A stretch of DNA of 64,000 nt from Candidatus Cloacimonadota bacterium (GTDB lineage Bacteria > Cloacimonadota > Cloacimonadia > Cloacimonadales > TCS61), in NCBI GenBank assembly GCA_023137125.1, contig JAGLPW010000098.1:13751-77750 (forward strand). The letters run 5' to 3'. Of the stretch, positions 37,686 through 64,000 are shown one piece after another. The translations under genes and the position numbers were made by a program. The notes under the pieces were generated by a model. The model was not told the origin of the DNA. It worked only from the letters and a program-made list of their open reading frames with translations, and did no database searches. The first letter of the stretch is position 1. The number at the start of each line of letters is the position of its first letter.

Positions 37686-38480
37686 TTATGATAATGAAAT
37701 ATTTCTTCTTTTAACTTTGCCGATTTCAACTAATATAACAGAGATATTATCATTTGATCCTCTTTGTATTGCGTATCTATTGAGTGATTCGACAGAAGCT
37801 TTTAAATCATTTATCCCGATAACATAATTATACAATTGAGTTGGATCTGTTTCTCGTTTATCAATTATTAATCCGTCAGAGCATAATAAAAATCCTATAC
37901 TTTCTTTTAAAGAATAGCTTGCTTTTTCCAAAGGGAAGATGTCAGGTTTGTAGATACCAAATCCTAGACATTTGGTTACTAAATGTCCAATATATTTTAT
38001 TGTTGCATCTTCAGGATAATATCCACGTTTTCTTCTGTAATCTTCTATGGCAGAATGATCTTGAGTGATTTGAAACATTGATTGAGAATTGTAATAATAT
38101 GCTCTGCTATCTCCAATATTACCTATAATATACTCGTTCCCCGCAATGAGAATGCAAGTTAAAGTAGTTCCCATACTTTTTATTTCTGTTTTTTTTCTTG
38201 CGATATTCATTATCTCTTTATCAGCAGCCTTTATTGCATTTGTTAGTGCATATTTAAGATCAAATGATGTTAAATGTGAAGAAAAATATTCTTTTAGATA
38301 ATCTTTACATTCCTCTATAGCTATCTGACTGGCAATTTCTCCACAATCCAATCCTCCCATACCATCTGCTATTGCGAAAAAATAAATATCTCTTTCAGAA
38401 TCAATTATTGTTTCAGTAATGGAATCTTGATTAATCAAGCGTCGACCAATAAATGAACGCGCGTATGAAGTAATTTTCAT
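37686..38480 (-). CDS. PP2C-family Ser/Thr protein phosphatase
   Basis: 264 aa. Motifs: NQDS, FAIADGMGG, GDSRAY, LLCSDGL, GSNDNISVILV. Confidence 0.85.
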   Translation of the reverse strand: MKITSYARSFIGRRLINQDSITETIIDSERDIYFFAIADGMGGLDCGEIASQIAIEECKDYLKEYFSSHLTSFDLKYALTNAIKAADKEIMNIARKKTEIKSMGTTLTCILIAGNEYIIGNIGDSRAYYYNSQSMFQITQDHSAIEDYRRKRGYYPEDATIKYIGHLVTKCLGFGIYKPDIFPLEKASYSLKESIGFLLCSDGLIIDKRETDPTQLYNYVIGINDLKASVESLNRYAIQRGSNDNISVILVEIGKVKRRNISLS

Positions 38481-38546
38481 AACTTCCTTATTTCATCAAA
38501 CTGGAAAGGTTGCCTGACCACTCGCAAGTGGTCAGACTAAATTCCC

Positions 38547-40046
38547 TTATTTCATAAGGATCATCTTCTTCGTCTTTTCGAAATTATCGGTTTTAAGTTT
38601 GTAGAAATAAATTCCTGAACTTACATGTTTGCCAGAATCATCTTTTCCATTCCAGATAATTGAATGCTGACCGGCTGATAACTGATCCCTGACAAGCTGT
38701 TTCACTTTTTGCCCTTTGATGTTGTAGATATTAAGTGTGACTTTTGAATCCTCTTTGAGAGAATAATTTATGATAGTGGATGGATTGAAGGGATTAGGGA
38801 ATGCATTTAACAAGCCAAAATCATGTGAAAAGTTAGAAAGTTCTTCCTCCACATTCGTTATTCCTTCTGGTGCAAGTTTTACTAAGTACATATCAAAATT
38901 GGTCCAAGTATTGTTTTCAATCCACCCTCCAAATACAAAACCTCCGTCATCGGTCTGTAGAATTGAATTACATACTTGACGGGTACCTTGTATACCACCT
39001 TCACTCATATATTCCCACTCCGAATATCCTAAGGAATTTGTTTTAATTATTTTACTGTGATGAGATGTTCGACAACAACCAATTTCAGAAAATCCACCAA
39101 GGATATATCCACTATCTGAGGTTTGTAAAACACTTTTACCTTCATCGTAACTCATAGAACCAGAATCATATATTTGAACCCAATCTAAACAAACCCAAGT
39201 ATCAATTTTCATAAGAAACATTTCCATTCCATCATAATAGGGCACGTTCGTATATCCACCTAAAATATATTCACCTTCATCAAATACTTGAATCGAATTA
39301 CAACAATCATGTAAGCCGATATCAATTATCCAAGGCCATTCCAAATTTCCGTAACTATCTGTTTTTACTAGGTAAACATCGGTAGGATCCCAATTACCAT
39401 AAACACCACTGCTCCCACCTAGAATGTATCCACCATCTTCAGTTTTATCGATAGAATAACACCTATCATCTAAGCTATCACCGAATGTCTGTTGCCACAA
39501 CAAATCACCCCAAGAATTAACTTTAAGTAAATACATATCATCTTCACCTGCACCAAAAGAGTCTGTATATCCTGCTAAAACACACGTGCTATCTTCTAAT
39601 GTTAACATAGAGTAGCAGACTTCATCACCGGGACCACCATAAGTTCTCGTCCAGAGTGTATCTCCGTTTGAATCAATTTTAACCAAATAGATATCAAGAC
39701 CACATGCTCCAAAGCTTTCAGTGTATCCAGCAGCTATAAAACTACCTCCAACAGACCTTTGGATTGAATAACATTTATCATTTAATGATCCGCCATAAGT
39801 CCTAGTCCACAGAGAATCACCTAGAGAATCTGTTTTAACTATGTAGAAATCATATATTCCACTGCCTTGAGATTCCTCCGTGATACCAGCCATGATGTAT
39901 CCACCATCATCAGTTATCTGAATCGAATTGCATTCATCTTTTCCTGGACCACCGTACATTCTTGCCCAAAGTGTGTCGGGTGCTTGAGCAAAAGTACATA
40001 TAATAAGAAACAGAAACTCTAATAAAAAAAATATTCTTTTTTTCAT
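38547..40046 (-). CDS. Secreted 7-repeat beta-propeller-like protein with a T9SS C-terminal sorting domain
   Basis: 499 aa with a signal peptide. Seven repeats of about 50 aa (W..TYGG...D.C.SI..T.DGGYI.AGYT.SFGAG..D.YLVK.D..GD). CTD AFPNPFNPSTIINYSL...KKMILMK. Confidence 0.75.
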   Translation of the reverse strand: MKKRIFFLLEFLFLIICTFAQAPDTLWARMYGGPGKDECNSIQITDDGGYIMAGITEESQGSGIYDFYIVKTDSLGDSLWTRTYGGSLNDKCYSIQRSVGGSFIAAGYTESFGACGLDIYLVKIDSNGDTLWTRTYGGPGDEVCYSMLTLEDSTCVLAGYTDSFGAGEDDMYLLKVNSWGDLLWQQTFGDSLDDRCYSIDKTEDGGYILGGSSGVYGNWDPTDVYLVKTDSYGNLEWPWIIDIGLHDCCNSIQVFDEGEYILGGYTNVPYYDGMEMFLMKIDTWVCLDWVQIYDSGSMSYDEGKSVLQTSDSGYILGGFSEIGCCRTSHHSKIIKTNSLGYSEWEYMSEGGIQGTRQVCNSILQTDDGGFVFGGWIENNTWTNFDMYLVKLAPEGITNVEEELSNFSHDFGLLNAFPNPFNPSTIINYSLKEDSKVTLNIYNIKGQKVKQLVRDQLSAGQHSIIWNGKDDSGKHVSSGIYFYKLKTDNFEKTKKMILMK

Positions 40047-40093
40047 ATTTTCCCTCCTTTTAAGGAAATACTAAAAGCATTTGGAATAAAGTT

Positions 40094-41668
40094 CTACTTC
40101 ATCAATATCATCTTTTTAGTTTCTTCGTGGTTGTCTGTCTTCAATTTATAGAAATAGATACTACTTGAAACTGATTTACCGTTATCGTCTTTCCCATTCC
40201 AAACAATTGAATGTTGACCATCTGGAAGTTGATCGTTGACAAGCTGTTTCACTTTCTGTCCTTTCAGATTGTAAATCGTTAATTCAACTTCGCTTTCTTC
40301 GGGTAGCTGATAACTTATAGTTGTAGTTGGATTGAATGGATTGGGATAATTTTGATGTAGTTGTGTAAAGCTTGGAATTACTAAATCATCTACACCAACA
40401 ACATTCTGATTTTCATAAGCTCCCATATCAATTCTTCCACCATAAATACGTGAGTTCCCGGCTAGGTCTAATTCAGGCAGATTTAATCCGGTTGTATTGG
40501 GATCACCGGTATTAACACAAGGTGATAGATCTTGCAGCATAAATGGATGATCTCCTGTTCCAACAAATAATGGGTCTTCGTCAATATTGCCAGTACCTGT
40601 CCAACCATCTTGTATATCCGAATATATCACTGTAACTGAGCCAGAAAAAATATAGATCTGTTCTGGTAAATTATCCCATAAAATGCAATTAACTAAACTT
40701 GAATTGGAACTGATGCTGTTACAAATTCCTCCACCTTGATCATAGGAAAGATTTCCAACTATTGTGCAATTAATGATCTCTGATTGCGAATTCGAAACTA
40801 GAATTCCACCACCAACTCCATCGCAATTATTTCCACTAATTAAGCAGTTGATAATATTTGCATCAGAATCCTGAATAGCTAAACCACCTACATTGTCTCC
40901 TAATGCTGAATTTCCTCTTATGATATTACATACAAATGTTGGAGAACTATTTAGGATTAATACTCCACCAGTTGTTATATTTGAAGAATTGTTTTCAATT
41001 ATGTTATTAATGAAAGTAGGATAACTTAATTCAATTGACACACCTCCAGTATGCCCCTGAGCAAAATTGTTTGAGATGATATTACCTTCAACGTAAGCAT
41101 TGGAGTTTTGGTAGAACTCAAGACCACCACAGTTCAAGGTTGTAGATGTATTGTAGGAAATTACATTATCGATGATCCTGGGATTAGAACTGTAAGCACA
41201 ACTTACTCCTCCAGTATAGTCTGCACTATTTTCAGTTATTATATTGTTACAAATAGTAGGAGATGAGCCACTCATCCAAATTCCTCCAGCAATTGTTCCC
41301 CAACCAGGATCGAGTGTGCCAGTACCTTCTGTAAGTGTAAAACCGATTATAACAGAGGTTGTATCTTCGTTAGATGTAAATCGTACACACGAGCCAAGAT
41401 CAGGATTCGTAGCTTGGCTGCCGTTAATGATTGTGTTTTCGATATGAAGTGGATCAGCATCAATCAGGAAATTACTCGCTACAGTAATCGGCTTACTTAT
41501 AAAATCGATATTTTCAAAATAAGTTCCATCTGCCACCAATACCGTATCTGTGTCGGCAGCAGCGACAATTCCTGCCTGGATCGTCGGTTGATCGGCAGGA
41601 ACGTTGATGATGGTTGAGTACAAACAAGTTGTTATTAACAAAATAAAAATTGGTATTAGCTTTTTCAT
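40094..41668 (-). CDS. Secreted right-handed beta-helix (PbH1 repeat) protein with a T9SS CTD
   Basis: About 524 aa counted from the ATG at 41668 (AAGGAGG RBS). Signal peptide and PbH1-type repeats. DMGAYEN is followed by the CTD NYPNPFNPTTTISYQL...KKMILMK. Confidence 0.75.
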   Translation of the reverse strand: MKKLIPIFILLITTCLYSTIINVPADQPTIQAGIVAAADTDTVLVADGTYFENIDFISKPITVASNFLIDADPLHIENTIINGSQATNPDLGSCVRFTSNEDTTSVIIGFTLTEGTGTLDPGWGTIAGGIWMSGSSPTICNNIITENSADYTGGVSCAYSSNPRIIDNVISYNTSTTLNCGGLEFYQNSNAYVEGNIISNNFAQGHTGGVSIELSYPTFINNIIENNSSNITTGGVLILNSSPTFVCNIIRGNSALGDNVGGLAIQDSDANIINCLISGNNCDGVGGGILVSNSQSEIINCTIVGNLSYDQGGGICNSISSNSSLVNCILWDNLPEQIYIFSGSVTVIYSDIQDGWTGTGNIDEDPLFVGTGDHPFMLQDLSPCVNTGDPNTTGLNLPELDLAGNSRIYGGRIDMGAYENQNVVGVDDLVIPSFTQLHQNYPNPFNPTTTISYQLPEESEVELTIYNLKGQKVKQLVNDQLPDGQHSIVWNGKDDNGKSVSSSIYFYKLKTDNHEETKKMILMK

Positions 41669-41700
41669 AATAGCCTCCTTGTTTATTGAAAATCTAAATA

Positions 41701-41716
41701 GCATAACCCAATCCAA
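41701..41716 (-). promoter_or_regulatory. Candidate sigma-54 promoter TTGGATTGGGTTATGC (weak -24 element)
   Basis: GG-N10-GC spacing. The -12 element, TATGC, is like the three strong sites. It lies 32 nt before the ATG at 41668. A second candidate, TTGGCATAACACTAGCA, is at 41941-41957 (minus strand). Confidence 0.35.
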
Positions 41717-41990
41717 ATAAAAAAATTATTTCTACCAGTAACTTAATTCGTAAAATAATAGGCAGTTACGTGATTTGTGGTTGTTAATAAAAATCTTAAT
41801 TTAAAGCTAAAAAATTCAAGAAGCTTTAGAATTTTATTAAAGTTTCTTTAGTTTTTTTAAATTGACAAGTAATTACATAAAACCTGATTTTGAAAATGGT
41901 TGTAAGATTTATATCTATAAGTTAATAGTTCTATTGTTTTTGCTAGTGTTATGCCAATCAGTGAATTAAATTTTATTACTAAGAGGCATT

Positions 41991-44900
41991 ATGAATTGGG
42001 AAAAAATTGTATCTAAAAAATTGATTGGCAAAGGTACATTTGGAAAAGTCTATAAAGTAACTGATGAAAAAGGCACGATCTGGGCTTTAAAAATAATTGA
42101 TAAACAGTATCATAAGTTTCGTATTCAGTTCAAAAGTGCGTTCGAAATAACCATGAAGATAAATGATATTAATTATGTAAAAGCCTACCAATGGCTCTCT
42201 GATAAAGATGTTAGCTGGGTGATGGAGTATGTGGAAGGGAAACCGATATCTGCCTTAAGGTTCTCAGATGAATTTAATTTAGACGAAATCCTGAAAGTTA
42301 TGATACAGGTCTGTAATGGATTGATGGCACTTCACAGCAAGAATATCATTCATCGGGACTTGAAACCGCAAAATATTCTTCTGAATTCAAATAATATTAT
42401 TAAAATTACAGATTTCGATTTTATAAAAATTGAACAAACCGGAAAACAGATGAGTCAATTTATTGGAACTCCCGCTTATTCATCCCCTGAACATTTTATA
42501 TCTTCTTATGACCTTGATATCAGAAGCGATCTGTATTCTCTCGGTGTAATATTATATGAACTGGTTACAGGAAAGTTACCGATCGAGGGAAAAGATGCAA
42601 AAGAGATAGGAGATAAACATCGTTTAAAACCAATTATATTGCCGACAAAGATCAATCCACTTATCCCTGAAGGAGTTGAGAAAATAATTACAGGATTATT
42701 GGAGAAAAATCCCAAAGACAGATACCAGCATGCTCATGCTGTGGCAATGGATCTATTTAAAGAAATAAAAAATAAAAAAGGTATTAAAGTTAAAGAAGAT
42801 ATTCCCTATTTGTTAAAACCAAGATTCGTGAACCGTGTAATATCATTAAAAACTCTAAATGAATTATCTGATGAGTTAGAGAGTAAAAATGGGAAAGTTG
42901 TACTGGTTCTGGGTGAATCGGGAATTGGAAAATCGAAACTGATCCAGCAGTTTTATCATTACCTGCAATTTCAGAATGTAGATTTTTATTATTCGGTTTG
43001 TAAACTTGTGGAACACTCATTTGAACCGCTATCTTCGATCTTTGAAGAGATTTTATCAGCAAAAACTGAAACTAAGAAACGGAAATATTTCGGAAAATTT
43101 GGTTGGGATCTAATTAAATTTGGAATTTTAGCAGAAAAAGAGTGGATGAATAAAATTGAGAAACCTGTTGAATTAAGCGGTAAGAGTGCTGAAATAAGAC
43201 TGTTTAATACTATGACCAACTTCATTCAAAAAGCAGCAGCCAAACCGCTGGTGATCTGTATAGATGACTTGCAATGGGCAGATGAGATAATCTTGAAGTG
43301 GCTTATCTATGCTGAGAGAAATCTAAAGGAATTTCCTGTACTGATCGTTGGTCTTCACCGTACGGAACAGCTCATTGAAGATTCATTGATCTTAAAAATA
43401 GAAAATCTGATCCAGATAAGAATAAATAATCTAAAATGTGTTGATGTTTCCGATATGATAAGATCCATGCTGGGTAAAAAAAGTTCCAGCAAAGAATTAG
43501 ATAATTTCATTAAAAGTATCATTACCCACACAAAAGGCAATCCATTATTTATCAGGGAGATTTTGTATTATTTGCAGGAAAAGAAAAAGATAACCATAGA
43601 AAATAATAAGTGGAAATTTCCCCTTGATCCGGAAATAAAAGACCTGCCATCAGATATTCACATGATCATTTTAGAAAGGATCCACGAGTTGAGCAGTGAA
43701 ACTTTAATTACTTTGCAGACAGCATCCGTTATTGGTAAGCAATTCAGCTTTGAAATGCTCATGTATATGACAAAGAAAAGTGATAATGAATTACTGGATG
43801 ACCTGATAGACTGCCGGGAAGTAAGTTTAATCGAAGGATCGGGCAATGATTATATCTTTATCCATGATAAGGTTCGAGAAGTTGTGGAGAATGAGGTTAA
43901 AGAGAAATATCCCTCCTTTTGGAAAGAACTTCACTTAAAAGCAGGAGAATTCCTGGAAGAAAAGTATTCTTCCAATCCAGATGAAGTTCTGGATGACATG
44001 GCAAATCATTATCTGGTTGCTGGGATCAGGGATAAATCAGTGAAATATTGCCAGTTGGCAGGAGATAAAGCGGGTGATAGATTTATTTTTAACAAAGCCT
44101 TATATTATTATGGATATGTTAAACAAATTATCAGCAAAGAAAGGAAAAGTATTAATAAAAATGAACAGGAATATACTGAACTTTCTAATCGACTATTTGA
44201 TGTTCAAATTAATATTATTGATATTTTCAGATGGACTGGGCAGTGGGAAAAAGCACTGGAAAATGCTGAGTTTACATTAAAAATGGCTGAAGATTTAAAC
44301 GATAAAAAGTATTTGGCAATTGCATTAAATAAAATAGGACTGCAATATTTCTACAAAGGTCTTTATCGTGAAGCAATGGAAATATTTAGAAGATATCTAA
44401 CAATTGACAGGAAAATTGGGTTTGAACTGGGTAAGTCCACAGCTTATGCAAACATGGGAATTATACATCTAAATCAAGGTGATTTGAAAAAGGCTTTAAC
44501 ATGTTTTGAGAATGAACTGAAAATTGTACGAAAATTGGGAAATATTCGAGAAGAATCTTTTGCTTATGGTTATATTGGTAATGTATATTTCGGTTATGGT
44601 AATCTAACAAAAGCCTGTGAATACTACAATAAAAAATTACATATAGCTGAGAAGTCGGGTGATAAATTGGCAATATGTGAAGTCCTGGGGGATATTGGCA
44701 GTATTTTTTTTAGGAAAGGAAATTATGACAAAGCTATGGATTATTACAAAAAAAATTTAATAATCGCCGAGGAGATCGGATACAAGCGTCGTATCTCTGT
44801 TGCTGTCGGATTAATGGGCAATGTACATTTTGTCAGGGGAGAATATGAAAAAGCAAGGAAATGTTATAATCAGAAAATGAAAATCGCAGAAGCTTTAGAC

Positions 44901-45446
44901 GAAAAACTTAGTATTATAAATTCATCATTAAGTATGGGTAAGATCCATTATTATCAAAAAGAATATAGAAGAGCTTTGGAATATTATGAAAGAGCGATTT
45001 CTCTGACAAATGAAATGGAATTGTGGATAAAGCTTCCATATATTATACTTCAAAAAGCGAAGATCAAGTATGAGCTGAAGGAATATGAAAACGCCCTTAA
45101 ATTTTCCCAAAAGGCAGATCATTTAGCTTATAAAATGAAAAATGAAGTCAGGATTTTTGAGTGTAAGTTAATGAAAATTAAAATCTTATTTAAAACTACT
45201 ATAAATAGAGAACTAAAAATAAAAAATTGCATAGAACCACTTGAGGAATTACTGGAACAAGTAAAAGATGAAGAACAAATAGCTGAAATTAATTATGAAT
45301 TAGCTGTTATGTATAGCGAATTTAAAAAGAAAACTGAAGTAGAAAAACATATAAAAAAAGGAATATCTCTATATGAAAAGCTTTATAAAAAAACTCCTAA
45401 ATTTGAATATAAAAATAAAATGGAATGCTTACAGAATTTAAATTAA
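41991..45446 (+). CDS. Ser/Thr protein kinase fused to an AAA/STAND-type NTPase and a long TPR array
   Basis: 1151 aa. Hanks kinase motifs (GKGTFGKVYK, HRDLKPQNILL, GTPAYSSPE; DFD in place of DFG). P-loop LGESGIGKS, then DDLQWAD. TPR repeats run from about residue 700 to 1000. Confidence 0.85.
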   Translation: MNWEKIVSKKLIGKGTFGKVYKVTDEKGTIWALKIIDKQYHKFRIQFKSAFEITMKINDINYVKAYQWLSDKDVSWVMEYVEGKPISALRFSDEFNLDEILKVMIQVCNGLMALHSKNIIHRDLKPQNILLNSNNIIKITDFDFIKIEQTGKQMSQFIGTPAYSSPEHFISSYDLDIRSDLYSLGVILYELVTGKLPIEGKDAKEIGDKHRLKPIILPTKINPLIPEGVEKIITGLLEKNPKDRYQHAHAVAMDLFKEIKNKKGIKVKEDIPYLLKPRFVNRVISLKTLNELSDELESKNGKVVLVLGESGIGKSKLIQQFYHYLQFQNVDFYYSVCKLVEHSFEPLSSIFEEILSAKTETKKRKYFGKFGWDLIKFGILAEKEWMNKIEKPVELSGKSAEIRLFNTMTNFIQKAAAKPLVICIDDLQWADEIILKWLIYAERNLKEFPVLIVGLHRTEQLIEDSLILKIENLIQIRINNLKCVDVSDMIRSMLGKKSSSKELDNFIKSIITHTKGNPLFIREILYYLQEKKKITIENNKWKFPLDPEIKDLPSDIHMIILERIHELSSETLITLQTASVIGKQFSFEMLMYMTKKSDNELLDDLIDCREVSLIEGSGNDYIFIHDKVREVVENEVKEKYPSFWKELHLKAGEFLEEKYSSNPDEVLDDMANHYLVAGIRDKSVKYCQLAGDKAGDRFIFNKALYYYGYVKQIISKERKSINKNEQEYTELSNRLFDVQINIIDIFRWTGQWEKALENAEFTLKMAEDLNDKKYLAIALNKIGLQYFYKGLYREAMEIFRRYLTIDRKIGFELGKSTAYANMGIIHLNQGDLKKALTCFENELKIVRKLGNIREESFAYGYIGNVYFGYGNLTKACEYYNKKLHIAEKSGDKLAICEVLGDIGSIFFRKGNYDKAMDYYKKNLIIAEEIGYKRRISVAVGLMGNVHFVRGEYEKARKCYNQKMKIAEALDEKLSIINSSLSMGKIHYYQKEYRRALEYYERAISLTNEMELWIKLPYIILQKAKIKYELKEYENALKFSQKADHLAYKMKNEVRIFECKLMKIKILFKTTINRELKIKNCIEPLEELLEQVKDEEQIAEINYELAVMYSEFKKKTEVEKHIKKGISLYEKLYKKTPKFEYKNKMECLQNLN

Positions 45447-47020: not shown

Positions 47021-47025
47021 AAAGG

Positions 47026-47127
47026 TTAATTAGTCTTTGTTCTATCCCTTTCTAAAGCTTTCATTAATAAGTAAATCTGCTTAATTTCGTTGAGCAATTG
47101 AGTTCGAACTGAAGAGGTTTGGGGGTA
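47026..47127 (-). repeat. Copy 2 of the ~100-nt conserved element (see 37557-37661)
   Basis: Minus-strand frame YPQTSSVRTQLLNEIKQIYLLMKALERDRTKTN*. 7 of the 16 codons that differ from copy 1 are synonymous. Confidence 0.6.
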
Positions 47128-47136
47128 TCATTTATT

Positions 47137-55818: not shown

Positions 55819-55982
55819 AATTTTTTCCTCCTGTTTTTTTTAATTTTCTTTTCATTACATTTTTTCTGCTTATCTACTGCTATCGATACATTAGATTCCT
55901 TTTTCTTTTTAACATTATCGAATTGCTTTAGCAATAAATCATCATCTTCAATTGATAGGGGAATAATCAATTTATCTCTCAT
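55815..55982 (-). CDS. Possible 55-aa Lys-rich leader ORF, translationally coupled (ATGA overlap) to the 637-aa gene
   Basis: My own translation: MRDKLIIPLSIEDDDLLLKQFDNVKKKKESNVSIAVDKQKKCNEKKIKKNRRKKL. GGAGG RBS 6 nt upstream. The ATG lies 37 nt after the sigma-54 -12 element. Confidence 0.4.
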   Translation of the reverse strand: MRDKLIIPLSIEDDDLLLKQFDNVKKKKESNVSIAVDKQKKCNEKKIKKNRRKKL

Positions 55983-56019
55983 TAAAACCTCCACATTTTT
56001 TTATTTGTAACACTTAGAA

Positions 56020-56035
56020 GCATTTGTTGTGCCAA
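56020..56035 (-). promoter_or_regulatory. Sigma-54 promoter TTGGCACAACAAATGC (minus strand)
   Basis: TGGCAC-N5-ATGC with GG-N10-GC spacing. Same TGGCACA-N4-ATGC form as the sites at 32485 and 63284. Confidence 0.8.
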
Positions 56036-56145: not shown

Positions 56146-56257
56146 TCGCAAATATGCGAAAATAAATTGTATAATTTACATAATATATGAGTTATCTTAT
56201 TTAATAGCTTGAGGTTAAAAATATTCGCATGAAATTGTGTGATTCGCAAATATGCGA
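56146..56257. promoter_or_regulatory. Two identical 17-mers TCGCAAATATGCGAAAA (inverted repeat TCGCA-N4-TGCGA) at 56146 and 56244; candidate bEBP enhancer sites
   Basis: Read directly. The copies are 98 bp apart and sit 111 and 209 nt upstream of the sigma-54 promoter, directly downstream of the TPR-bEBP gene. An extra half-site, TTCGCAT, is at 56224. Confidence 0.6.
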
Positions 56258-56318
56258 AAAAAGACGACCTATTCTTTCTCTGATTTACCGGTTATATGAA
56301 TGAAGATATACTTTACAA

Positions 56319-58439
56319 TTATTCAGATATTTTCTTTTTTAATATTCTATAGATTTGAGATTTGTTCAATTTTCCAAGTTCACATGCTTTAGGAATATCT
56401 TGATCAGATACATTTAGTAATTTATTTACATATTTCAAATCCAAATCATCACCCATTTTGGTTTTGAATAATTTATAATCTGACCAATCTATTGGAAACT
56501 CATCAATAGAAGCTGTTTCTGTTTTATGAGCCGCAGCAACAAAAAGCTCAATATGAAGCGTATCTTGTCCGCAGAGCAAAACCGCTTTCTCAATTTCATT
56601 TTCCAATTCACGAATATTACCCTGCCATGGTAGTGAAAGCAGATAATTAAGTGCGTCAGCAGATACTGTTTTGATCTTCTTACTGAATTTTTTATTGTAT
56701 TTTCCGATGAAATGATTCACCAGAGGTGGAATATCAATTTTACGCTCTTTAAGAGCGGGAATTTCTATTTTTATTACATTCAATCTGTAAAACAGATCTT
56801 CCCTGAATTCTGAATTGTCTATCATTTCCTGCAGATCTCTGTGAGTGGCGGATATTATTCTGATCGAAACAGGAACAGGTTTTGTGCTTCCTACCGGTGT
56901 GACAGTTCGTTCCTGAATTACCCGCAGCATTTTGGATTGCAGCGAAAGCGGCATATCTCCAATCTCATCCAAAAAAAGAGTACCGTTGTTCGCCATCTCG
57001 ATCTTTCCCTTTTTATTTTTATCTGCTCCCGTAAAAGCTCCTTTTGCATAGCCAAAAAGTTCACTTTCTAAAAGATGCTCCGGAATTGCTGAGCAATTGA
57101 TTGCAACGAAAGGTGAATTCTTCTTATATTTTCTGTGTATTGCTTTGGCAACAAGTTCTTTCCCGCTTCCCGTTGGTCCTGTTATCATCACATTTACATT
57201 ATGCTCTGCAACCATATTTATCATAGAAAAAACATCATTCATTATTTTACTTCTACCAATAATTTCCGGGAAATCAAACTTTTTATCCGCATTGTCTTCA
57301 ATAAACAGGTTATCTATTTTTTGCATTTGAACATTTGCAATTTTTCGTGCTGTTTCAATGTTCAGAATACTTTCTTTAATTTCAAAATATTTTTTTTGAT
57401 ATTTATAAGCTTTTGCAAAATCATCTAATTTAAAATAGATTTCGTTTGCAACTTTAAAGGTATTCAATTTTATTGTTTTTACATTCAATTCTTCTACTAA
57501 TTCTATTGCTTGATCAATATAACTCAATGCTGTATCAAATTTACCTATATAAAAATAAACTTCTCCGAGATTGCAAAGAATTGGTGACCATGAATACTTA
57601 TCCGATTTATCAATGTACTGCTCTGCTTGCAAAAAATAGGTTAAAGCAGATTCGTATTTTTTTTGAATTATATATATTTCACCAATATTATTTAAAGAAT
57701 ATGCTATGAATTTCTTATGATTTTCTTTTTTGAAAATAGTTAACGCCTTCTGATAATATTGATAAGAAAGATCATAATCTTTTGTGGAAGTGTGTGTTAG
57801 ACCAATATTCAAAAAGACAGAGGCTAGCAATATTTGATCATCATATGTTTCACTAATTTCAAGAGCTTTTTGATGATATTTAATTGCTCTATCATATAAA
57901 CCTACACTATTAAAGTTGTTTCCAATATTGGTAAGTGCGGCAATAATATTACGAGTATTATCTTCCTTCTTAGATTCATTTAATAAATAGAAAAGCGTTT
58001 CCAGTGATTTCTCATAATTTCCTACTTCATCATAAGCTCTTCCGAGATTTAAAGCTGAATTTGTATGGAATTTTTTGTCATCCAAAGTAGAACTTGCATT
58101 GAAACTCAAAGTGAGATATTTTATTGCTTCATCAAAACTATTTGTCCTCATGAAAGTATCACCAACATAATAATAACACTTAATAATATTTGTTTTATCT
58201 CCCAGAAGCTCAAAAATTTTGAGAGCTTGCTTGAATAAGCTGTTAGCTTTTAAGAACTCAGAAAGCTGATGGTAACTTATTCCGAGATCATAATAAAGCT
58301 TTGCTCTTTCGGCATCATCTTCTATCAAACTTATTTGTCCTGAAACTTTTACGGCAAGTTTTAGAGATTCTTTGGGAGAATCTTTTAAATTTTTCTTAAT
58401 TTTCTCTATAGATTTATTAATATCATCTTTCCTTTTCAT
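56319..58439 (-). CDS. Sigma-54-dependent activator with a ~370-aa N-terminal TPR sensor domain
   Basis: 706 aa. TPR repeats throughout the N-terminal half. Walker A GPTGSGKE, YAKGAFTGA, REDLFYRLN, and a C-terminal HTH (IPKACELGKLNKSQIYRILKK). Confidence 0.85.
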   Translation of the reverse strand: MKRKDDINKSIEKIKKNLKDSPKESLKLAVKVSGQISLIEDDAERAKLYYDLGISYHQLSEFLKANSLFKQALKIFELLGDKTNIIKCYYYVGDTFMRTNSFDEAIKYLTLSFNASSTLDDKKFHTNSALNLGRAYDEVGNYEKSLETLFYLLNESKKEDNTRNIIAALTNIGNNFNSVGLYDRAIKYHQKALEISETYDDQILLASVFLNIGLTHTSTKDYDLSYQYYQKALTIFKKENHKKFIAYSLNNIGEIYIIQKKYESALTYFLQAEQYIDKSDKYSWSPILCNLGEVYFYIGKFDTALSYIDQAIELVEELNVKTIKLNTFKVANEIYFKLDDFAKAYKYQKKYFEIKESILNIETARKIANVQMQKIDNLFIEDNADKKFDFPEIIGRSKIMNDVFSMINMVAEHNVNVMITGPTGSGKELVAKAIHRKYKKNSPFVAINCSAIPEHLLESELFGYAKGAFTGADKNKKGKIEMANNGTLFLDEIGDMPLSLQSKMLRVIQERTVTPVGSTKPVPVSIRIISATHRDLQEMIDNSEFREDLFYRLNVIKIEIPALKERKIDIPPLVNHFIGKYNKKFSKKIKTVSADALNYLLSLPWQGNIRELENEIEKAVLLCGQDTLHIELFVAAAHKTETASIDEFPIDWSDYKLFKTKMGDDLDLKYVNKLLNVSDQDIPKACELGKLNKSQIYRILKKKISE

Positions 58440-58521
58440 TTCGACCTCACACTAAACTTACTTCAGTATCAAAATGAGTTATTTTTTTGTCTAATGATTT
58501 TTTATTTCTACATATTAAAGG

Positions 58522-58633
58522 GATTAGAGATTAGGGATTAACTTTATTTTGTAATATTTCTTATTTATAGAATATAGAAAAGAAAAGTGAAATCTATTGC
58601 AAGATTTCACTTTATATTATATCAACTTATTTC
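58522..58633 (-). repeat. Conserved 3' module (heptamers + terminator GTGAAATCT-ATTGCA-AGATTTCAC + last CTD codons), paralogous to about 47384-47497
   Basis: About 5 mismatches over ~112 nt by eye. Terminator hairpin at 58587-58610. Confidence 0.8.
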
Positions 58634-60606
58634 AGAAGAATCATTTTCTTTGTTTGTTCAAGGCTACCTGATTTTAATTTGTAGAAATATAAACCACTGG
58701 AAATAGGTTTTCCGTTTTTATCATCTCCATTCCAGACAACCTGATGTATTCCTATATCCAATTTTTCATTAACTAAAGTTTTAACTTTTTGTCCTCTTAA
58801 ATTATAGATTATCAATTCCGTGTTCTCTGCGCTTTCTGTGGCTAACGAAAAAGAAATGGTTGTTGTCGGATTAAAAGGATTGGGGTAATTGCTGATCAGG
58901 GCTGTGGTTGTAAAAATCTCGTTACCAGCGCTCACGATATTAGGTACAAAATCAATTGTAACCATAACAGATTCACCTTCATCATAAACTGCAACAACAC
59001 CGGCTTCGTAGGTAGTTCCATTTATTAGGTCTGTGAATTGCCATTCCGTATCTATAGTGTTACCTTCCTGCTCGCCATCGAGGTAAACATTATAACCTAT
59101 AGGATCTACTGAAGAAGGAGCATCCCAGGTAAATTGTCCGTTAGCTTCATCTACAGTTAGATTTGTAGGAGGAAATAAGGGAGAACTGATCACGGCACCT
59201 ACTGCATCATCGGCATTTACCATCCCATATCCAGTGTACCTATCCCAACCCGGAGTTGGTTCTTCATCGATAATATCCGTAGTAGTGGAAGTGAGATAGA
59301 ACCTAACTTCTGCCGGTGTGAGGGTAGGATTTTTAGATTTGATAAGTGCTGCAACACCAGCAGCATAGGGAGTAGCACAAGAAGTACCAGCAAAGAGCAT
59401 AAAATAATCTCCTTGAGTAAATCCGCTAACTCCGATAACATCAGTAGTTGGAAGAATTGTTGGAGCAACCAGATCAACAGCATCTCGAGCATCTTGGATA
59501 TCAACACCATAACTCGACCCCCACCACATTTGTCCATCACAAGAAGTAGGACTTTTTCTTTCTGCACAAGGAGAAGCTGCACCCACGGCAATAACATGTT
59601 CATCATTTGCAGGATGAGAAATATATGGTTCATTGAAGTTTTGAGTACACGCCAATAGTGTAACGCCATTATCATAGGCATAAGCAATTGCTGCATCGGC
59701 AGAAGGGTTGGAACCTTGCTGTCCTTCGAATCCAAAACTCATACTGGCGATATCGACCCCATAATCTCCGCAATGCGTTAATGCATTGTTAATAATTGTT
59801 TGAGTTACAGCACCATTATAGGGTGAAATTTTTAAAGGCATGATACTACAGCCTCCTGCTACACCAGAAATACCAATTCCGTTATCTACTGCTGCCGCTG
59901 CTATACCAGCACAACAAGTACCGTGCCCTGCATCCATAAAACTATCATCCATCGGGTCATCATCATTGTCTCCGTAATCATAACCGGGAACACAATTATC
60001 GATCAAATCTTCATGATTGTAATCTACACCTGAATCTATGATAGCTATGATAATGTCGGGATTACCATAGCCTTGATCGTCATCCCAGGCCTCTTCTATA
60101 TGAGAGTCAAATCCAATTACTTGTCCGCTTCCGGGTCCGTTTAGCTCTGTATTATCATGTCCCCAGCAGTCATCAAAGTACGGATCATCGGGTGTAACAG
60201 AAAGATAATATATATATTCCGGATTAGCAAACTCGACATATTCATTATTTTTATAATATTTTATTGCATCCTCAATATCTGTTTTTTCGGGAACAAAGAA
60301 TAGGTACCAGCGAGCAAAACCGGTTTGCTGCTCCCAGACTTTATCATTTACTGGTCTGTGGGCCAGGATTATCTTTGTAACGTCATACTCGACATTCAAG
60401 GCATCTAATGTTTCTAAACCTGTTTGATCGATTTGTTCGTTATTTTGAAGTAATGCATTAATCTTTTCGGAAGCTTCTTCATTCAATTTTACTTTGATCC
60501 GATCGGAAGCATAAAGCTTTCTACCGTGACTGTCCAATATGATTCCTGTTGCAAATATAGAATTTATCAATAAAAATAATATAAGAAAAAATATTAATCT
60601 TTTCAT
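58627..60606 (-). CDS. Secreted S8 subtilisin-family serine peptidase with an FN3-like domain and a T9SS CTD
   Basis: About 659 aa counted from the ATG at 60606 (AGAGGAG RBS). Catalytic triad contexts IAIIDSGVDYNH, HGTCCAGIAAA, GTSCATPYAAGVAAL. CTD NYPNPFNPTTTISFSL...KKMILLK. Confidence 0.85.
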   Translation of the reverse strand: MKRLIFFLILFLLINSIFATGIILDSHGRKLYASDRIKVKLNEEASEKINALLQNNEQIDQTGLETLDALNVEYDVTKIILAHRPVNDKVWEQQTGFARWYLFFVPEKTDIEDAIKYYKNNEYVEFANPEYIYYLSVTPDDPYFDDCWGHDNTELNGPGSGQVIGFDSHIEEAWDDDQGYGNPDIIIAIIDSGVDYNHEDLIDNCVPGYDYGDNDDDPMDDSFMDAGHGTCCAGIAAAAVDNGIGISGVAGGCSIMPLKISPYNGAVTQTIINNALTHCGDYGVDIASMSFGFEGQQGSNPSADAAIAYAYDNGVTLLACTQNFNEPYISHPANDEHVIAVGAASPCAERKSPTSCDGQMWWGSSYGVDIQDARDAVDLVAPTILPTTDVIGVSGFTQGDYFMLFAGTSCATPYAAGVAALIKSKNPTLTPAEVRFYLTSTTTDIIDEEPTPGWDRYTGYGMVNADDAVGAVISSPLFPPTNLTVDEANGQFTWDAPSSVDPIGYNVYLDGEQEGNTIDTEWQFTDLINGTTYEAGVVAVYDEGESVMVTIDFVPNIVSAGNEIFTTTALISNYPNPFNPTTTISFSLATESAENTELIIYNLRGQKVKTLVNEKLDIGIHQVVWNGDDKNGKPISSGLYFYKLKSGSLEQTKKMILLK

Positions 60607-60718
60607 TTGCTCCTCTTTCTTTGTTTTGGAGTAAAACAACCGTGTTGTTTTTACATCAACACGGTTGATACGCTCCATATACTATTTCATCAGGATCTGT
60701 CTTGTGAAATCTCTTTTC

Positions 60719-62683
60719 TTATTTCATCAAGATCATTTTTTTGGTTGAAGTATAACTGCCGTTCTTTAATTTATACAGATACATTCCTGATGAAACAGGT
60801 TGATTATTATCATCCATCCCGTTCCAAACAACATTATGATTTCCTTGAGCAAGTGTACTATGAATTAATGTTTTAATTTTTTGTCCTTTCATGTTGAATA
60901 TTTCAAGATCCACAAACGAGGACGTTTGTGGTACAGAGAAAGATATTAATGTTGTTGGATTGAAAGGATTCGGATAATTCTGTTTCAATGAGAATACTGC
61001 ATTCACGACATTATCATCCGTTCCTACTTCCGATACAAGCGTTATGTTCAATGCATATGGCCCTGTTCCTTCCGGTACTTGTACTTCTTCGATAGTTTGA
61101 GAAATGTATCCATCCAGTGAAAAAGTGACATCATAATATCCAGGTATTATTGCCATTGAATAATCTCCGAGTGTATTCGGATTACCAGTAAATAGATTGC
61201 CGGCACTATCTTCAGCCTCAATTAGAACATCTACAACATTGCCGTAACCACCACTTAAAGTAACAGTACCGTAAAGATCTCCTGTTACATATCCTAGAGT
61301 GAAGTCGATATTACTGGTTGTTTCACCTTCTATTACGACTACATTATAGTTAGTTTGAGAAACATATCCAGCCATAGAAGTGGTTATATTATAAGTTCCC
61401 GGCAAAACTTCCAGTGTGTAATTTCCTGATTCATCAGGATTGGTTAATCCACCACCACCGGTAATTACAACATCTTCCACGTTACCGGCACCATTCAAAG
61501 TAACATTACCTTCAATAAATCCGGGATCTCCGGGTTCACCGTCTTCGATTTCTGCCATATACATATTTAAGTTTCCATCTATACTAATTGTTCCTGTTAA
61601 AAGGTAGTTCCCGGAAAACGTAGGAATAATCTCATTTGCAGTGAGATGCGGACTGTGATCGTACACCCTGTCCCAGACTAATGTTCCTTCAGAATCGGTT
61701 TTGATGATGTATATATCCAGATCAGTATAGCTTGTTCCTGTTATACCTGCTGCTAAAATCCCATCATCAGGTGTAGAGAGTATTGAATTTACAAACTCAA
61801 ATTGAGGAAAACCGAAATAACTTTCCCATAGGAAATTCCCATCAGCATCAGTTCTAACAATATAAGAATCCGCACCGCCAGCTCCGTAAGTATATGTAGC
61901 TCCACCGGCAATCAAATCTCCATTGGCGGCTTCGTTAACTGTTTCAAAAATTTCATCATCCATACCGCCGTAAGCTTGCTCCCAAAGAAATGAACCATCT
62001 GCATCGATCTTAACAAGATATCCGTCAGAGCCGCCGGCACCAAATGATTGAGTCATGCCTGCAATTACATAACTCCCATCCTGCGTTTGAATGATTTCCT
62101 TGCCGTATTCAGCCATCATACCGCCGTAATTTTGTGACCACTCTTCAATTCCTTCGGAGTCGATCTTTAGTAGCCGGATATCAAATCTTTGCATAGGATC
62201 TTCGTTTGAAGGCCCAGCAACGAGATAACCGCCGTCATCAGTAGCTAATATCGAATAACCTACCTGGTCATAAATTACTTCATATCTATAGTCCCATTCA
62301 ATGTTACCTCCCGAGTCCCATTTTATTACTAAGAAATCCTGTCCACCCTCCAGAGTTTGTTTATGTCCGGCTGTAACAAAACCTCCGTCATCTGCTTGAA
62401 CTACAGAATACGCTGTCTCAATATCATAATTATCACCATAAATTTGCGACCAGATAAATTGACCGGTCGAAGTTGTTTTCACCAACGTTGCATTTGGATC
62501 GATAGCAATAAACATTAAGCCTGAAACAACAAAATCCCCTTCGTCGGTTTGCAGTACCGAATACCCATATTCTGCACCTCCTAAATCATGATTTGCATCC
62601 CAGATAATATCTCCGGGATTAGCAAAAACCGCTGTTGTGAGCAGTAAACCTAAAATTACCGCTATGAATAATTTCTTTTTCAT
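60719..62683 (-). CDS. Secreted 7-repeat beta-propeller-like protein with two CarboxypepD_reg-like domains and a T9SS CTD
   Basis: About 654 aa counted from the ATG at 62683 (AGGAGA RBS). Seven W..YGG...DGGY..AG...G..D..LVK.D..G repeats. Two GxVTLxGGxGNVxDVxI...GxYxxxxxPGxYxV domains. CTD ...KKMILMK. Confidence 0.75.
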   Translation of the reverse strand: MKKKLFIAVILGLLLTTAVFANPGDIIWDANHDLGGAEYGYSVLQTDEGDFVVSGLMFIAIDPNATLVKTTSTGQFIWSQIYGDNYDIETAYSVVQADDGGFVTAGHKQTLEGGQDFLVIKWDSGGNIEWDYRYEVIYDQVGYSILATDDGGYLVAGPSNEDPMQRFDIRLLKIDSEGIEEWSQNYGGMMAEYGKEIIQTQDGSYVIAGMTQSFGAGGSDGYLVKIDADGSFLWEQAYGGMDDEIFETVNEAANGDLIAGGATYTYGAGGADSYIVRTDADGNFLWESYFGFPQFEFVNSILSTPDDGILAAGITGTSYTDLDIYIIKTDSEGTLVWDRVYDHSPHLTANEIIPTFSGNYLLTGTISIDGNLNMYMAEIEDGEPGDPGFIEGNVTLNGAGNVEDVVITGGGGLTNPDESGNYTLEVLPGTYNITTSMAGYVSQTNYNVVVIEGETTSNIDFTLGYVTGDLYGTVTLSGGYGNVVDVLIEAEDSAGNLFTGNPNTLGDYSMAIIPGYYDVTFSLDGYISQTIEEVQVPEGTGPYALNITLVSEVGTDDNVVNAVFSLKQNYPNPFNPTTLISFSVPQTSSFVDLEIFNMKGQKIKTLIHSTLAQGNHNVVWNGMDDNNQPVSSGMYLYKLKNGSYTSTKKMILMK

Positions 62684-62820
62684 CTTTTCTCCTGTTTTCA
62701 TCTTTTCCTCCAATTTTTTTGCCACAGAGATACGAAGATTGTAGAGATTTTCTCTTTTAATTCCCTTAATCTATGAAATCTGTGAGCCGTTTTTTTAATT
62801 AACATATTCATACTCCTTAA

Positions 62821-63093
62821 TTATAAAAGAAGTGTTCTCTTCGGTGAAATGTAACTTCCGTTAGTTATTTGATAATAGTATATGCCGTTCAGAACTTTAT
62901 TTCCTGAATTATCTGTTCCGTCCCATTTCATATTATGCTCACCCGATTTTATCTTTTCGTTGAGAATTGTTTTGATCAGCTCATTATCAAAATTGTAGAT
63001 CTGAACCTTGGTTTTATATTTTTCCGTTTTTGAGAAAAATAAAATGTTTATCCAATTTTCAATCGGTTCCGGCATACTCCAATGTACTCTCAT
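62821..63093 (-). CDS. Orphan 90-aa protein consisting essentially of a degenerate T9SS/FlgD-Ig-like CTD, without a signal peptide
   Basis: Starts at the ATG at 63093 (GGTGGAG RBS). INILFFSKTEKYKTKVQIYNFDNELIKTILNEKIKSGEHNMKWDGTDNSGNKVLNGIYYYQI...KRTLLL aligns with the CTDs of its neighbours. Confidence 0.5.
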   Translation of the reverse strand: MRVHWSMPEPIENWINILFFSKTEKYKTKVQIYNFDNELIKTILNEKIKSGEHNMKWDGTDNSGNKVLNGIYYYQITNGSYISPKRTLLL

Positions 63094-63283
63094 TTTTTTT
63101 CTCCACCTTTTACACACTTCTATTTTTTTTGAGGTAGGATTTATTCCCCATAAGAACCACAAATCAATCGGTTCGTTTGGAGAACCAACCCTACCATTAA
63201 TAACGAACCAGTTCTCATTGTATTACACCCAGACAAGACGCCACTACATGCAAAAACTTATGCTCGTATGGTGATGATAATCA

Positions 63284-63299
63284 GCATTTGCTGTGCCAA
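63284..63299 (-). promoter_or_regulatory. Sigma-54 promoter TTGGCACAGCAAATGC (minus strand)
   Basis: TGGCAC-N5-ATGC with GG-N10-GC spacing. A leader of about 190 nt precedes the ATG at 63093. Confidence 0.75.
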
Positions 63300-63432
63300 A
63301 GATAATGAAGTGATGTTTTCTCATTTTACAATCGTCATGTAAGTCTGATAAAAATATGAAGTTAAGAAATGATATATTTTTTATTTATTGTGTTTTCAGT
63401 TAAAATAAAAATCTAATTCTGACCACGAAAAA

Positions 63433-63550
63433 GAAACATATTTGTTTCAGACTATAAATAATTTAATTTCTTTTCGGTGTTAATTTACTGTATTCAAATT
63501 AGTTATGCTTGGTAGTTTCTGTTTTGTTTCTTTAGAAACAAAAATGTTTC
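63433..63550. promoter_or_regulatory. Palindromes GAAACA-TATT-TGTTTC (63433-63448) and TGTTTC-TTTA-GAAACA-AAAA-TGTTTC (63525-63550); candidate bEBP enhancer sites
   Basis: Read directly. The GAAACA-N4-TGTTTC copies are 102 bp apart and sit 134 and 236 nt upstream of the promoter at 63284, directly downstream of the second TPR-type bEBP gene. Confidence 0.55.
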
Positions 63551-63604
63551 ATTTTGAACTACATACCTTTATATCTGCAAAATCTGCGTTATTAGTGCTT
63601 TGTT

Positions 63605-64000
63605 TTATGTCTTTTCTTTCTTCAGAAGTCTGTAGATCTGTGCTCGTTCCAAACCACCGTTCTTGCTCGCTTCTTGAACATTATTGCCGGTTGAGATAAG
63701 AAGTTCTTTCACATAAGCAGCATCGAGTTTATCGACAATCCCATTTTTATAGGATTTATATTCCAGCCATTTTATCGGAAGACCTTCAAAAATATTCTCA
63801 GATTCTTTGTGTGATACATCCGTAAAAAGCTCAATATGAAGCATATCTTGTCCGCAAAACAAAACCGCTTTTTCAATTTCGTTTTCCAATTCACGAACAT
63901 TTCCCTGCCACGAAAGTGAGAGCAAATAATTAAGAGCATCTATAGAAACACTTCTGATCTTCTTATTGAATTTTTTATTGTATTTTCTGATAAAATGATT
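63605..64000 (-). CDS. Sigma-54-dependent activator, C-terminal part only (gene continues beyond the window); paralog of 56319-58439
   Basis: NHFIRKYNKKFNKKIRSVSIDALNYLLSLSWQGNVRELENEIEKAVLFCGQD... is collinear with the C-terminus of the 706-aa bEBP. The HTH differs (VQEASKNGGLERAQIYRLLKK). Confidence 0.8.
   Translation of the reverse strand, partial: NHFIRKYNKKFNKKIRSVSIDALNYLLSLSWQGNVRELENEIEKAVLFCGQDMLHIELFTDVSHKESENIFEGLPIKWLEYKSYKNGIVDKLDAAYVKELLISTGNNVQEASKNGGLERAQIYRLLKKEKT

Follow-up and report, generated by a model that had tools for sequence, protein, structure and literature searches.

In Porphyromonas gingivalis, the PorX/PorY/SigP system feeds into type IX secretion (the T9SS) through an extracytoplasmic function (ECF) sigma factor together with a response regulator of PglZ type, and acts mainly on machinery genes. 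Cloacimonadota are abundant, uncultured fermenters of protein and amino acids that live in anaerobic digesters and anoxic sediments. A T9SS has been suggested for this phylum from genomes (PMC11285876). The closest described case of sigma-54 acting on T9SS cargo comes from Flavobacterium psychrophilum, in which a sigma-54-type promoter contributes to transcription of remFG-sprCDBF, as reporter mutagenesis confirms; this operon encodes T9SS adhesin cargo, and the sigma-54 regulon includes exported proteins of unknown function (PMC9723704). Here we analyse a 64,000-nt stretch of a Candidatus Cloacimonadota contig (JAGLPW010000098.1, positions 13,751 to 77,750; hereafter the window), which belongs to a metagenomic scaffold of 112 kb (ENA ERZ23498471, scaffold_40). 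Between positions 37,686 and 64,000, genes for proteins with a T9SS C-terminal domain (CTD) are interspersed with genes for sigma-54 activators, and we consider it probable that three sigma-54 switch cassettes for T9SS cargo, called A, B and C below, stand here in tandem.

An earlier note on this DNA had proposed that part of the T9SS secretome is expressed through sigma-54 with several independent sensory inputs, and had thought such wiring unusual. The proposal is supported by oriented promoter elements, palindromes, intact activator loops and ten of ten related loci, and sigma-54 control of part of the predicted T9SS secretome is well supported in silico; the wiring is indeed unusual, but it has a precedent in F. 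psychrophilum (PMC9723704). In that member of the Fibrobacteres–Chlorobi–Bacteroidetes (FCB) superphylum, as is predicted for the window, a −24/−12 promoter drives an operon whose products include a surface protein secreted by T9SS. In F. psychrophilum, however, the operon is also served by a second sigma factor, its cargo has a type B CTD and the activators are encoded away from their target, whereas in the window each operon has an adjacent activator and candidate enhancer, the activators are of a tetratricopeptide repeat (TPR) type or kinase-coupled, and the cargoes are proteases and enzymes with type A CTDs. PorXY/SigP is alike as a regulatory input to T9SS and differs in that the window arrangement targets cargo genes and is predicted to use sigma-54; the window open reading frames (ORFs) scanned gave no sign of PorXY/SigP-type regulation, with no PglZ or ECF-sigma domain and no PorX-like protein among them. 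In the literature we found nothing relevant on sigma-54 or rpoN in Cloacimonadota, or on enhancer-binding proteins in connection with T9SS. The principle of sigma-54 acting on T9SS cargo is known; the cassette layout with adjacent, dedicated TPR-type or kinase-coupled activators and its conservation across the phylum are new. They widen T9SS cargo regulation past PorXY/SigP and ECF sigma factors, and the conserved set of activator, promoter and cargo yields testable predictions (motif, activator-paired candidate enhancers, operons) for a phylum without genetics.

In the mechanism that we propose, each cassette would consist of a gene for a dedicated cytoplasmic bacterial enhancer-binding protein (bEBP) adjacent to its target operon, paired palindromes (or one inverted repeat) 110–240 nt upstream of a −24/−12 promoter, and an operon of exported proteins with Sec signal peptides and type A CTDs. 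In cassettes A and B the activator would be a TPR-bEBP, with an N-terminal TPR sensor, whose gene would have a promoter of its own that is not of the sigma-54 type. The products would be, in cassette A, a small Ig-like protein followed by a beta-propeller protein and an S8 protease, and in cassette B, a protein of 55 aa followed by a beta-propeller protein, a thioredoxin-like selenoprotein and a gingipain-like C25 protease. A two-gene relay would operate in cassette C, in which a PknK-like kinase-STAND-TPR sensor acts on a neighbouring GAF-like bEBP; the latter would activate the divergent operon for a beta-helix protein, a propeller-like protein and a PP2C-type phosphatase, and the phosphatase would reset the kinase signal. 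We infer the use of the promoter sites by sigma-54 holoenzyme, the pairing of activators with palindromes, the sensing of signals and export through the translocon SprA.

Cargo operons and their sorting domain

Seven ORFs, all read from the (−) strand, end in a shared domain of ~80 aa with the pattern N[YA][PF]PNPFNP[ST]T ... [KR]KMIL[LM]K (38547–40046, 40094–41716, 47533–52860, 52872–53663, 53905–55818, 58627–60678 and 60719–62725), and the motif region forms a seven-copy DNA repeat across the window. Each of the seven scores 34.7–47.5 bits on the NCBIfam model TIGR04183 ('T9SS type A sorting domain'; curated cut-off 23 bits), and all pass the Pfam models PF18962 (>27 bits each) and PF13860. 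When the true start is used, all seven begin with an N-terminal Sec signal peptide, judged by inspection of the translations to be an MKK...hydrophobic...A/S-type leader. On these two features, a CTD above the cut-off and a Sec signal peptide, the seven proteins are predicted T9SS type A cargo.

An eighth ORF had been counted among the CTD proteins, and this one did not stand. The 90-aa product of 62821–63093 (−), the first gene of operon A, matches PF13860 at 46 bits; it reaches only 16.6 bits on TIGR04183, under the cut-off of 23, and lacks the NPFNP and KKMIL motifs as well as a signal peptide, which rules it out as a T9SS cargo. On sequence grounds it is a stand-alone Ig-like (FlgD_ig-like) domain.

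The kinds of cargo listed in the earlier note (beta-propellers, a beta-helix protein, C25 and S8 peptidases and a thioredoxin-like UxxC protein) agree with Pfam matches and, for the last, with an in-frame TGA. In operon A, the Ig-like gene is followed by a 660-aa beta-propeller protein (DUF5122/delta-60) with CarboxypepD_reg and a type A CTD (60719–62701, −; Pfam, TIGR04183) and, as the last gene, by an S8 subtilase with fn3 and a type A CTD (58627–60606, −; PF00082 151 bits, TIGR04183), which is 659 aa from the called start. Operon B opens with a 55-aa, highly charged (basic) ORF (55815–55982, −) whose stop overlaps the next start (ATGA). It is followed by a 637-aa beta-propeller (PQQ_2/BamB-like) cargo with a type A CTD (53905–55818, −; Pfam, TIGR04183), the candidate selenoprotein described below (52872–53876, −) and a 1775-aa cysteine peptidase of the gingipain family C25 (47533–52860, −; TIGR04183). 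This last protein matches PF01364 at 183 bits and the propeptide model PF08126 at 99 bits, and further carries CarboxypepD_reg, fn3 and the type A CTD. Operon C begins with a right-handed beta-helix cargo (40094–41668, −; PF13229, TIGR04183) for which the ATG at 41668, with AAGGAGG before it, is taken as the true start; the second gene of the operon encodes an SBBP/delta-60-repeat (beta-propeller-like) cargo (38547–40046, −; TIGR04183 47.5 bits, PF18962, PF13860). The three propeller-like cargoes were assigned from PQQ_2, DUF5122, SBBP and delta-60 repeat matches that are partly sub-threshold. A PP2C-type Ser/Thr phosphatase gene (37686–38480, −; PF13672, PF00481) is probably the last of operon C; the 66-nt gap before it holds a hairpin without a T-run and no GG-N10-GC.

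As had been anticipated, a SprA-like translocon gene lies about 15 kb from the gene cluster. Its product, a 2036-aa homologue of the T9SS outer-membrane translocon SprA/Sov (16814–22924, −; PF14349 SprA_N), scores 520 bits on the equivalog model TIGR04189 against a cut-off of 200, and the distance is 14.8 kb.

We considered whether the shared domain might instead be a FlgD-like Ig domain that serves surface anchoring or protein contacts, so that the cassettes would regulate envelope proteins outside T9SS. PF13860 FlgD_ig scores equal to or better than PF18962 on most cargoes, a stand-alone CTD-like copy without a signal peptide, which cannot be a secretion signal, heads cassette A and two foreign cassettes, and SprA is the sole T9SS component in the window, PorK/L/M/N, PorU, PorV and PorZ not being found within its 64 kb. 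Against this, the domain is strictly C-terminal in all seven cargoes, each of which exceeds the TIGR04183 cut-off and has a Sec signal peptide, and the SprA/Sov equivalog is nearby. Gingipain-like C25, S8, beta-helix and propeller proteins are moreover classic T9SS cargo types, and Cloacimonadota are listed among the probable T9SS phyla (PMC11285876). With these data we regard a role outside T9SS as unlikely, and treat the seven proteins as predicted T9SS cargo in what follows.

Candidate sigma-54 promoters and their activators

The −24/−12 element was sought as TGG-N9-TGC or GG-N10-GC, and in a stricter form as TGGCAY-N5-WWGCW. On either strand of the window GG-N10-GC turns up roughly once in each kb, and it had been said to stand in every gap that could hold a promoter. 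This was not the case: the element appeared in 3 of 12 strand-specific gap scans (11 distinct gaps), only in the gaps leading the three cargo operons, and was absent from the gaps that precede the two bEBP genes (489 aa and, TPR type, 706 aa), the PP2C gene and, on the + strand, the kinase gene. All three cargo-operon elements have the orientation of the target operon. The stricter consensus gave four hits in 64 kb against 0.33 expected, a number reached by none of 100 shuffles. Three of these sites (63298–63283, 56034–56019 and 32485–32500) adjoin a bEBP gene and point towards the genes that come after them; the remaining one (41956–41941) is in the divergent gap beside the kinase gene.

A further measure came from a position weight matrix (PWM) trained solely on seven sites from foreign TPR-bEBP loci and scored at 128,000 window positions. 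The best score in the window, 23.4, fell on the predicted operon A promoter TGGCACAGCAAATGCT (63283–63298, −), and the second best, 18.0, on that of operon B, TGGCACAACAAATGCT (56019–56034, −); on randomised DNA, the shuffled mean maximum was 13.9 and the random maximum 18.4. For operon C, the candidate element is TGGATTGGGTTATGCTA (TTTGGATTGGGTTATGCTA; TGGATT...TGC; 41699–41715, −), 49 nt before the ATG at 41668. The site at 41956–41941 (TGGCATAACACTAGCA; TGGCAT...TAGCA; PWM 14.2) was rejected as the operon C promoter, as it is 290 nt from the ATG and absent from the three related kinase loci (L021–L023). This site, which fits the sigma-54 consensus well and stands right beside the kinase start codon, probably arose by chance or else serves this lineage as a second promoter.

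Upstream of the elements are palindromes that could serve as enhancers. In operon B these are two identical 17-nt copies of TCGCAAATATGCGAAAA, 98 nt apart (56146–56162 and 56244–56260), a candidate enhancer for the 706-aa TPR-bEBP, and in operon A they are AGAAACATATTTGTTTCA and AGAAACAAAAATGTTTCA, 102 nt apart (63432–63551), a candidate enhancer for the 704-aa TPR-bEBP. These 17–18-nt palindromes are perfect or near-perfect and lie 112–236 nt upstream of the −24/−12 elements; TCGCAAATATGCGA and GAAACA-N5-TGTTTC are the putative target sites of the activators' helix-turn-helix (HTH) domains. Operon C has instead one inverted repeat, AAAAAATTCAAGAAGCTTTA / TAAAGTTTCTTTAGTTTTTT (20+20 nt; 41809–41857), a candidate site for the 489-aa bEBP, which is adjoined by a TTGACA box facing the kinase gene. 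The GAAACA-N5-TGTTTC type of operon A recurs in two foreign loci (L018, L020), and a ~60-nt block holding the operon C inverted repeat is nearly identical in L021 and L022. Inspection of the foreign gaps also revealed TGAAACA-N-TGTTTCA, ATGACACA-N-TGTGTCAT, TGTGACA-N-TGTCACA and GAGACA-N-TGTCTC. Related but locus-specific palindromes are expected if each activator recognises its own site.

Domain matches and the GAFTGA or GSFTGA loops bear out the three sigma-54 activators, the kinase-STAND-TPR protein and the PP2C phosphatase that had been read from the cluster. The 706-aa TPR-bEBP (56319–58439, −; PF00158 240 bits, TPR families) comprises ~385 aa of TPR repeats, an AAA+ domain with GAFTGA and a C-terminal HTH, and its full-length relatives bear Cloacimonadota or Cloacimonetes names wherever a source name is given. 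The 3′ part of a second TPR-bEBP gene is at the right window end (63605–64000, −; AAA_lid_14); on the full contig (L011) the protein is 704 aa long and 59% identical to the first. The 489-aa activator of cassette C (45551–47020, +; PF00158 233 bits) has a GAF-like N-domain, an AAA+ domain with GSFTGA and a Fis-type HTH. Its GAF input, as claimed before, was not confirmed: the match is to GAF_2 and sub-threshold, scoring 19 bits where 28.6 are required (E = 0.0014); fused homologues carry GAF. The sigma-54 contact loop is intact in every case, as GAFTGA in the 706-aa, 704-aa and 450-aa activators and as GSFTGA in the 489-aa protein.

These activators resemble those of the NtrC/NifA/XylR type in their PF00158 AAA+ domain, GAFTGA motif, C-terminal HTH and N-terminal regulatory domain, and in the paired palindromes ~100–250 nt from a −24/−12 promoter. 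Two of them differ from this type in that the sensor is ~385 aa of TPR rather than a receiver, GAF, PAS or V4R domain. We know of no characterised TPR-bEBP, and this family, together with the split or fused kinase-STAND-TPR-bEBP described next, adds uncharacterised sensor architectures.

The 1151-aa protein encoded beside the 489-aa bEBP (41991–45446, +; Pfam) joins a PknK-like Ser/Thr kinase to a STAND NTPase (AAA_16) and a MalT-like TPR sensor, and in this it is like PknK and MalT-like STAND regulators; one homologue is named PknK. In Cloacimonadota, a bEBP gene always comes after that of the kinase homologue. Among distant homologues of the kinase-STAND-TPR protein are fusion proteins (P0146–P0164, ~1470–1810 aa; from Calditrichota and unassigned bacteria) that hold Ser/Thr kinase, STAND, TPR, GAF, sigma-54 AAA+ and HTH in one chain, and residues 8–436 of the 489-aa bEBP align to residues 1177–1602 of P0146 (41% identity, E = 1e-90). 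The kinase-STAND-TPR and bEBP modules are thus two adjacent genes in Cloacimonadota and a single chain elsewhere. Gene fusion and conserved adjacency (3/3 loci) support the kinase and the 489-aa bEBP as a functional pair, and we infer, as a further step, that the kinase might phosphorylate the bEBP and that the co-transcribed PP2C might reverse this. In Myxococcus xanthus, input from eukaryote-like Ser/Thr kinases to FHA-domain sigma-54 activators has been proposed. That case differs in that the partner bEBP there has an FHA domain and here a GAF-like one, and in that coupling here is read from adjacency and fused proteins.

A further possibility is that the bEBPs are mainly autoregulators or repressors and the palindromes operators of another factor, with sigma-54 a minor or conditional overlay on constitutive expression. 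The F. psychrophilum cargo operon has such a dual promoter, served by sigma-54 and another sigma factor (PMC9723704), and gaps of 336–442 nt leave room for further promoters. The bEBP genes' own upstream gaps are, however, without a −24/−12 element, and the palindromes lie on the cargo side, at classic enhancer distance upstream of the element. We give this overlay little credence and favour activation of the cargo operons by the adjacent bEBPs.

Conservation of the proposed cassettes in related loci

The layout was compared with seven loci that encode full-length TPR-bEBP homologues (47–54% identity, from different metagenomes) and three that encode kinase-STAND-TPR homologues (47–66% identity; L021, L022 and L023). 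All seven TPR-bEBP loci have, on one strand, the activator gene, a 250–450-nt gap, an optional small gene and then at least one large CTD protein gene. All three kinase loci have the kinase gene followed by a 486–504-aa bEBP gene, and a divergent operon that starts with a beta-helix CTD gene. In 10/10 loci a TGG-N9-TGC element lies 28–91 nt ahead of the gene that opens the presumed target operon; at a chance of 0.018 per locus (1.9e-4 per nt, 110-nt window), the binomial P for this is 4e-18. The counterparts of the operon C element are 50 nt (L021), 46 nt (L022) and 75 nt (L023) before the ATG, and the rejected site at 41956–41941 has no counterpart. With a hidden Markov model built from the seven CTDs of the window, the first large gene of the target operon was CTD-positive in all ten foreign loci. 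The synteny in related genomes that had been put forward as a check on the sigma-54 wiring is therefore present, as a shared layout of activator, −24/−12 element and CTD cargo in each of the ten Cloacimonadota loci.

Such a layout could in principle arise by chance in genomes crowded with CTD genes and bEBPs, where the activators would have other targets and the cargo would use housekeeping promoters; CTD genes are indeed frequent (for example, four to five CTD-positive genes each in L015, L022 and L023) and the AT-rich DNA is full of sigma-70-like hexamer pairs (92, with 88 expected), so that promoters of that type may exist, but we consider coincidence very improbable, because 3 of the 36 genes beyond the TPR-bEBPs, away from the promoter, carry a CTD against 7/7 first large genes on the promoter side (hypergeometric P ~4e-6 for those seven loci), because the position of the element is shared by all ten, and because the neighbours that flank the foreign TPR-bEBP cassettes are unrelated housekeeping genes.

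The small gene between promoter and cargo varies. A stand-alone CTD-like (FlgD_ig) protein of 88–90 aa without a signal peptide occupies the first position of the operon in cassette A of the window (62821–63093), in L015 (10458–10730) and in L020 (9389–9655; 36% identity). Elsewhere the slot holds a 117–131-aa receiver domain (L014, L017) or a 56-aa protein (L018), the latter 32% identical to the 55-aa ORF of operon B. This small first gene may encode a feedback component.

Broader searches added little to the family. A search of metagenome contigs with an alignment of the TPR region gave 80 loci, of which all but L025 and L026 encode unrelated TPR proteins; these two belong to the family. L026 looks to be the same locus as L015; L025 carries TTTGGCACAGCTATTGCT ~240 nt past the TPR-bEBP gene and ends before any CTD gene would show. 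A search of genome contigs with the 706-aa TPR-bEBP gave only generic AAA+ matches in Acidobacteria and other phyla.

Several observations weigh against the three-cassette reading. The operon C element scores 11.9 on the PWM, inside the random range and thus weak when taken alone, and a better-matching, non-conserved site is found 225 nt further upstream. The operon A leader is ~180 nt long (63094–63282, −), against ~50 nt in related cassettes, and contains a terminator-like hairpin (63190–63166); this leader could be an attenuator or a rearrangement remnant. The PP2C gene is not kept in the three related kinase loci. No rpoN gene or RpoN-box ORF was found in the window or the retrieved loci, so that sigma-54 itself is implied through the four bEBPs of the window. 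The count of ten loci in ten overstates their independence, given a single phylum and the chance that some of the loci are close relatives. Finally, we know of no experimental demonstration of T9SS function in Cloacimonadota, and SprA is the one component checked here.

A candidate selenoprotein and other features of the window

In operon B, gene callers divide one gene into parts of 61 and 263 aa. An in-frame TGA (53693–53691) links the 61-codon signal-peptide part, which starts at ATG 53876, to the 263-aa ORF, so that the apparent 241-nt gap at 53664–53904 is coding and a 334-aa protein is predicted (52872–53876, −) with a signal peptide, a thioredoxin-like W-U-G-G-C motif, fn3 and a type A CTD. 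If the TGA were not read through, the CTD protein would lack a signal peptide. In the one orthologue examined (L024, 84% identity), codon 62 is likewise a TGA and the frame is conserved on both sides, and the 61 upstream codons differ from those of the window by nine synonymous and five non-synonymous changes. Sequence matches of the thioredoxin-like domain in the PDB are nearly all to the thioredoxin family, including ResA, with weak E-values of 0.003–1, and in the two alignments displayed (3hcz and thioredoxin 2yoi) the U aligns with the first Cys of CxxC. Over the same stretch, the Pfam matches (AhpC-TSA, Redoxin, Thioredoxin_7) are sub-threshold. A 5-bp hairpin, ACGGC-GGC-GCCGU, begins 12 nt past the UGA and is invariant in L024; the region folds no better than shuffles (z = 0.31). 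A homologue search with the N-terminal domain returned only three truncated relatives and no Cys-containing orthologues. Within the window we found no selenocysteine machinery (tRNA-Sec, selA/B/D), and an Rfam scan of it gave one tRNA only; a Cloacimonetes-type tRNA-Sec has been described (PMC5330540). Together, the reading frame and its conservation suggest that this thioredoxin-like U-G-G-C cargo is likely a selenoprotein.

The predicted protein is like known thioredoxin-fold bacterial selenoproteins (U-x-x-C; TlpA/ResA-like) in having UGA at the position of the first CxxC Cys and a signal peptide. It is unlike them in its fusion to fn3 and a T9SS type A CTD, from which a cell-surface or secreted location is predicted, and in the place of its gene, directly upstream of the C25 cysteine peptidase gene. 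Such a selenoprotein with a CTD tag, if real, would be an unusual instance of a selenoenzyme brought to the cell surface.

More speculatively, Cloacimonadota might organise much of their T9SS secretome as duplicating plug-in cassettes, each with a private cytoplasmic sensor-activator (a TPR-bEBP, or a kinase-STAND-TPR protein split from a GAF-bEBP), the enhancer palindrome that belongs to it, a promoter for sigma-54, a small first gene whose non-secreted product (a CTD-like Ig domain, a receiver domain or a 55-aa basic protein) feeds back on the activator, and the cargo, so that each set of proteases or enzymes is switched separately. One set would then pair an exported selenocysteine thiol-disulfide oxidoreductase with a gingipain-like protease and keep the protease or its substrates reduced outside the cell. 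We offer this extended picture only tentatively and think it rather doubtful as a whole.

Cassette duplication is indicated by the 59% identity of the two TPR-bEBPs together with a 116-nt repeat, 95% identical between its copies, at the 3′ ends of operons B (47381–47496) and A (58519–58634). The repeat contains a terminator hairpin, AAAGTGAAATCTTGCAA(A/T)AGATTTCACTTT, followed by short repeats of the TAATCCC/TAATTTC type. The intrinsic terminators predicted for operon B (47446–47475, −), after the C25 gene, and for operon A (58584–58613, −), after the S8 gene, are strong and both lie inside it. Further GATGAGGG-type repeats are present in the convergent gap 47021–47532. A second repeat of 107 nt, 78% identical (37557–37663 and 47026–47132), stands 3′ of the (+) strand Omp85-like and 489-aa bEBP genes; it contains GAGTTCGAACTGA(G/A)GAGGTTTGGGGGTA and has no match in Rfam.

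The cluster had also been described as a 26-kb island. As a cluster of genes it stands, but its base composition is the same as that of the rest of the window: GC is 29–37% throughout, and neither GC nor skew breaks at the cluster, for which reason we rejected a horizontally acquired island. The closest named relatives of the window proteins are in metagenome-assembled genomes of Candidatus Cloacimonadota or Cloacimonetes.

Outside the cluster, a fourth sigma-54 module occupies 28437–33831 (+). It consists of a PDZ-histidine kinase gene and an NtrC-type response regulator gene, followed by TGGCACAGTTTATGCA (32485–32500), which is 27 nt before the ATG (32528) of genes for outer-membrane-barrel-like proteins and has a AGACACAAGTGTCT palindrome upstream. 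A promoter-like site before outer-membrane-protein-like genes suggests that sigma-54 use is not restricted to T9SS cargo. At the left window end, a split HipA-like toxin kinase is encoded as a pair of ORFs, one with the Couple_hipA N-domain and one with HipA_C (137–1422, −).

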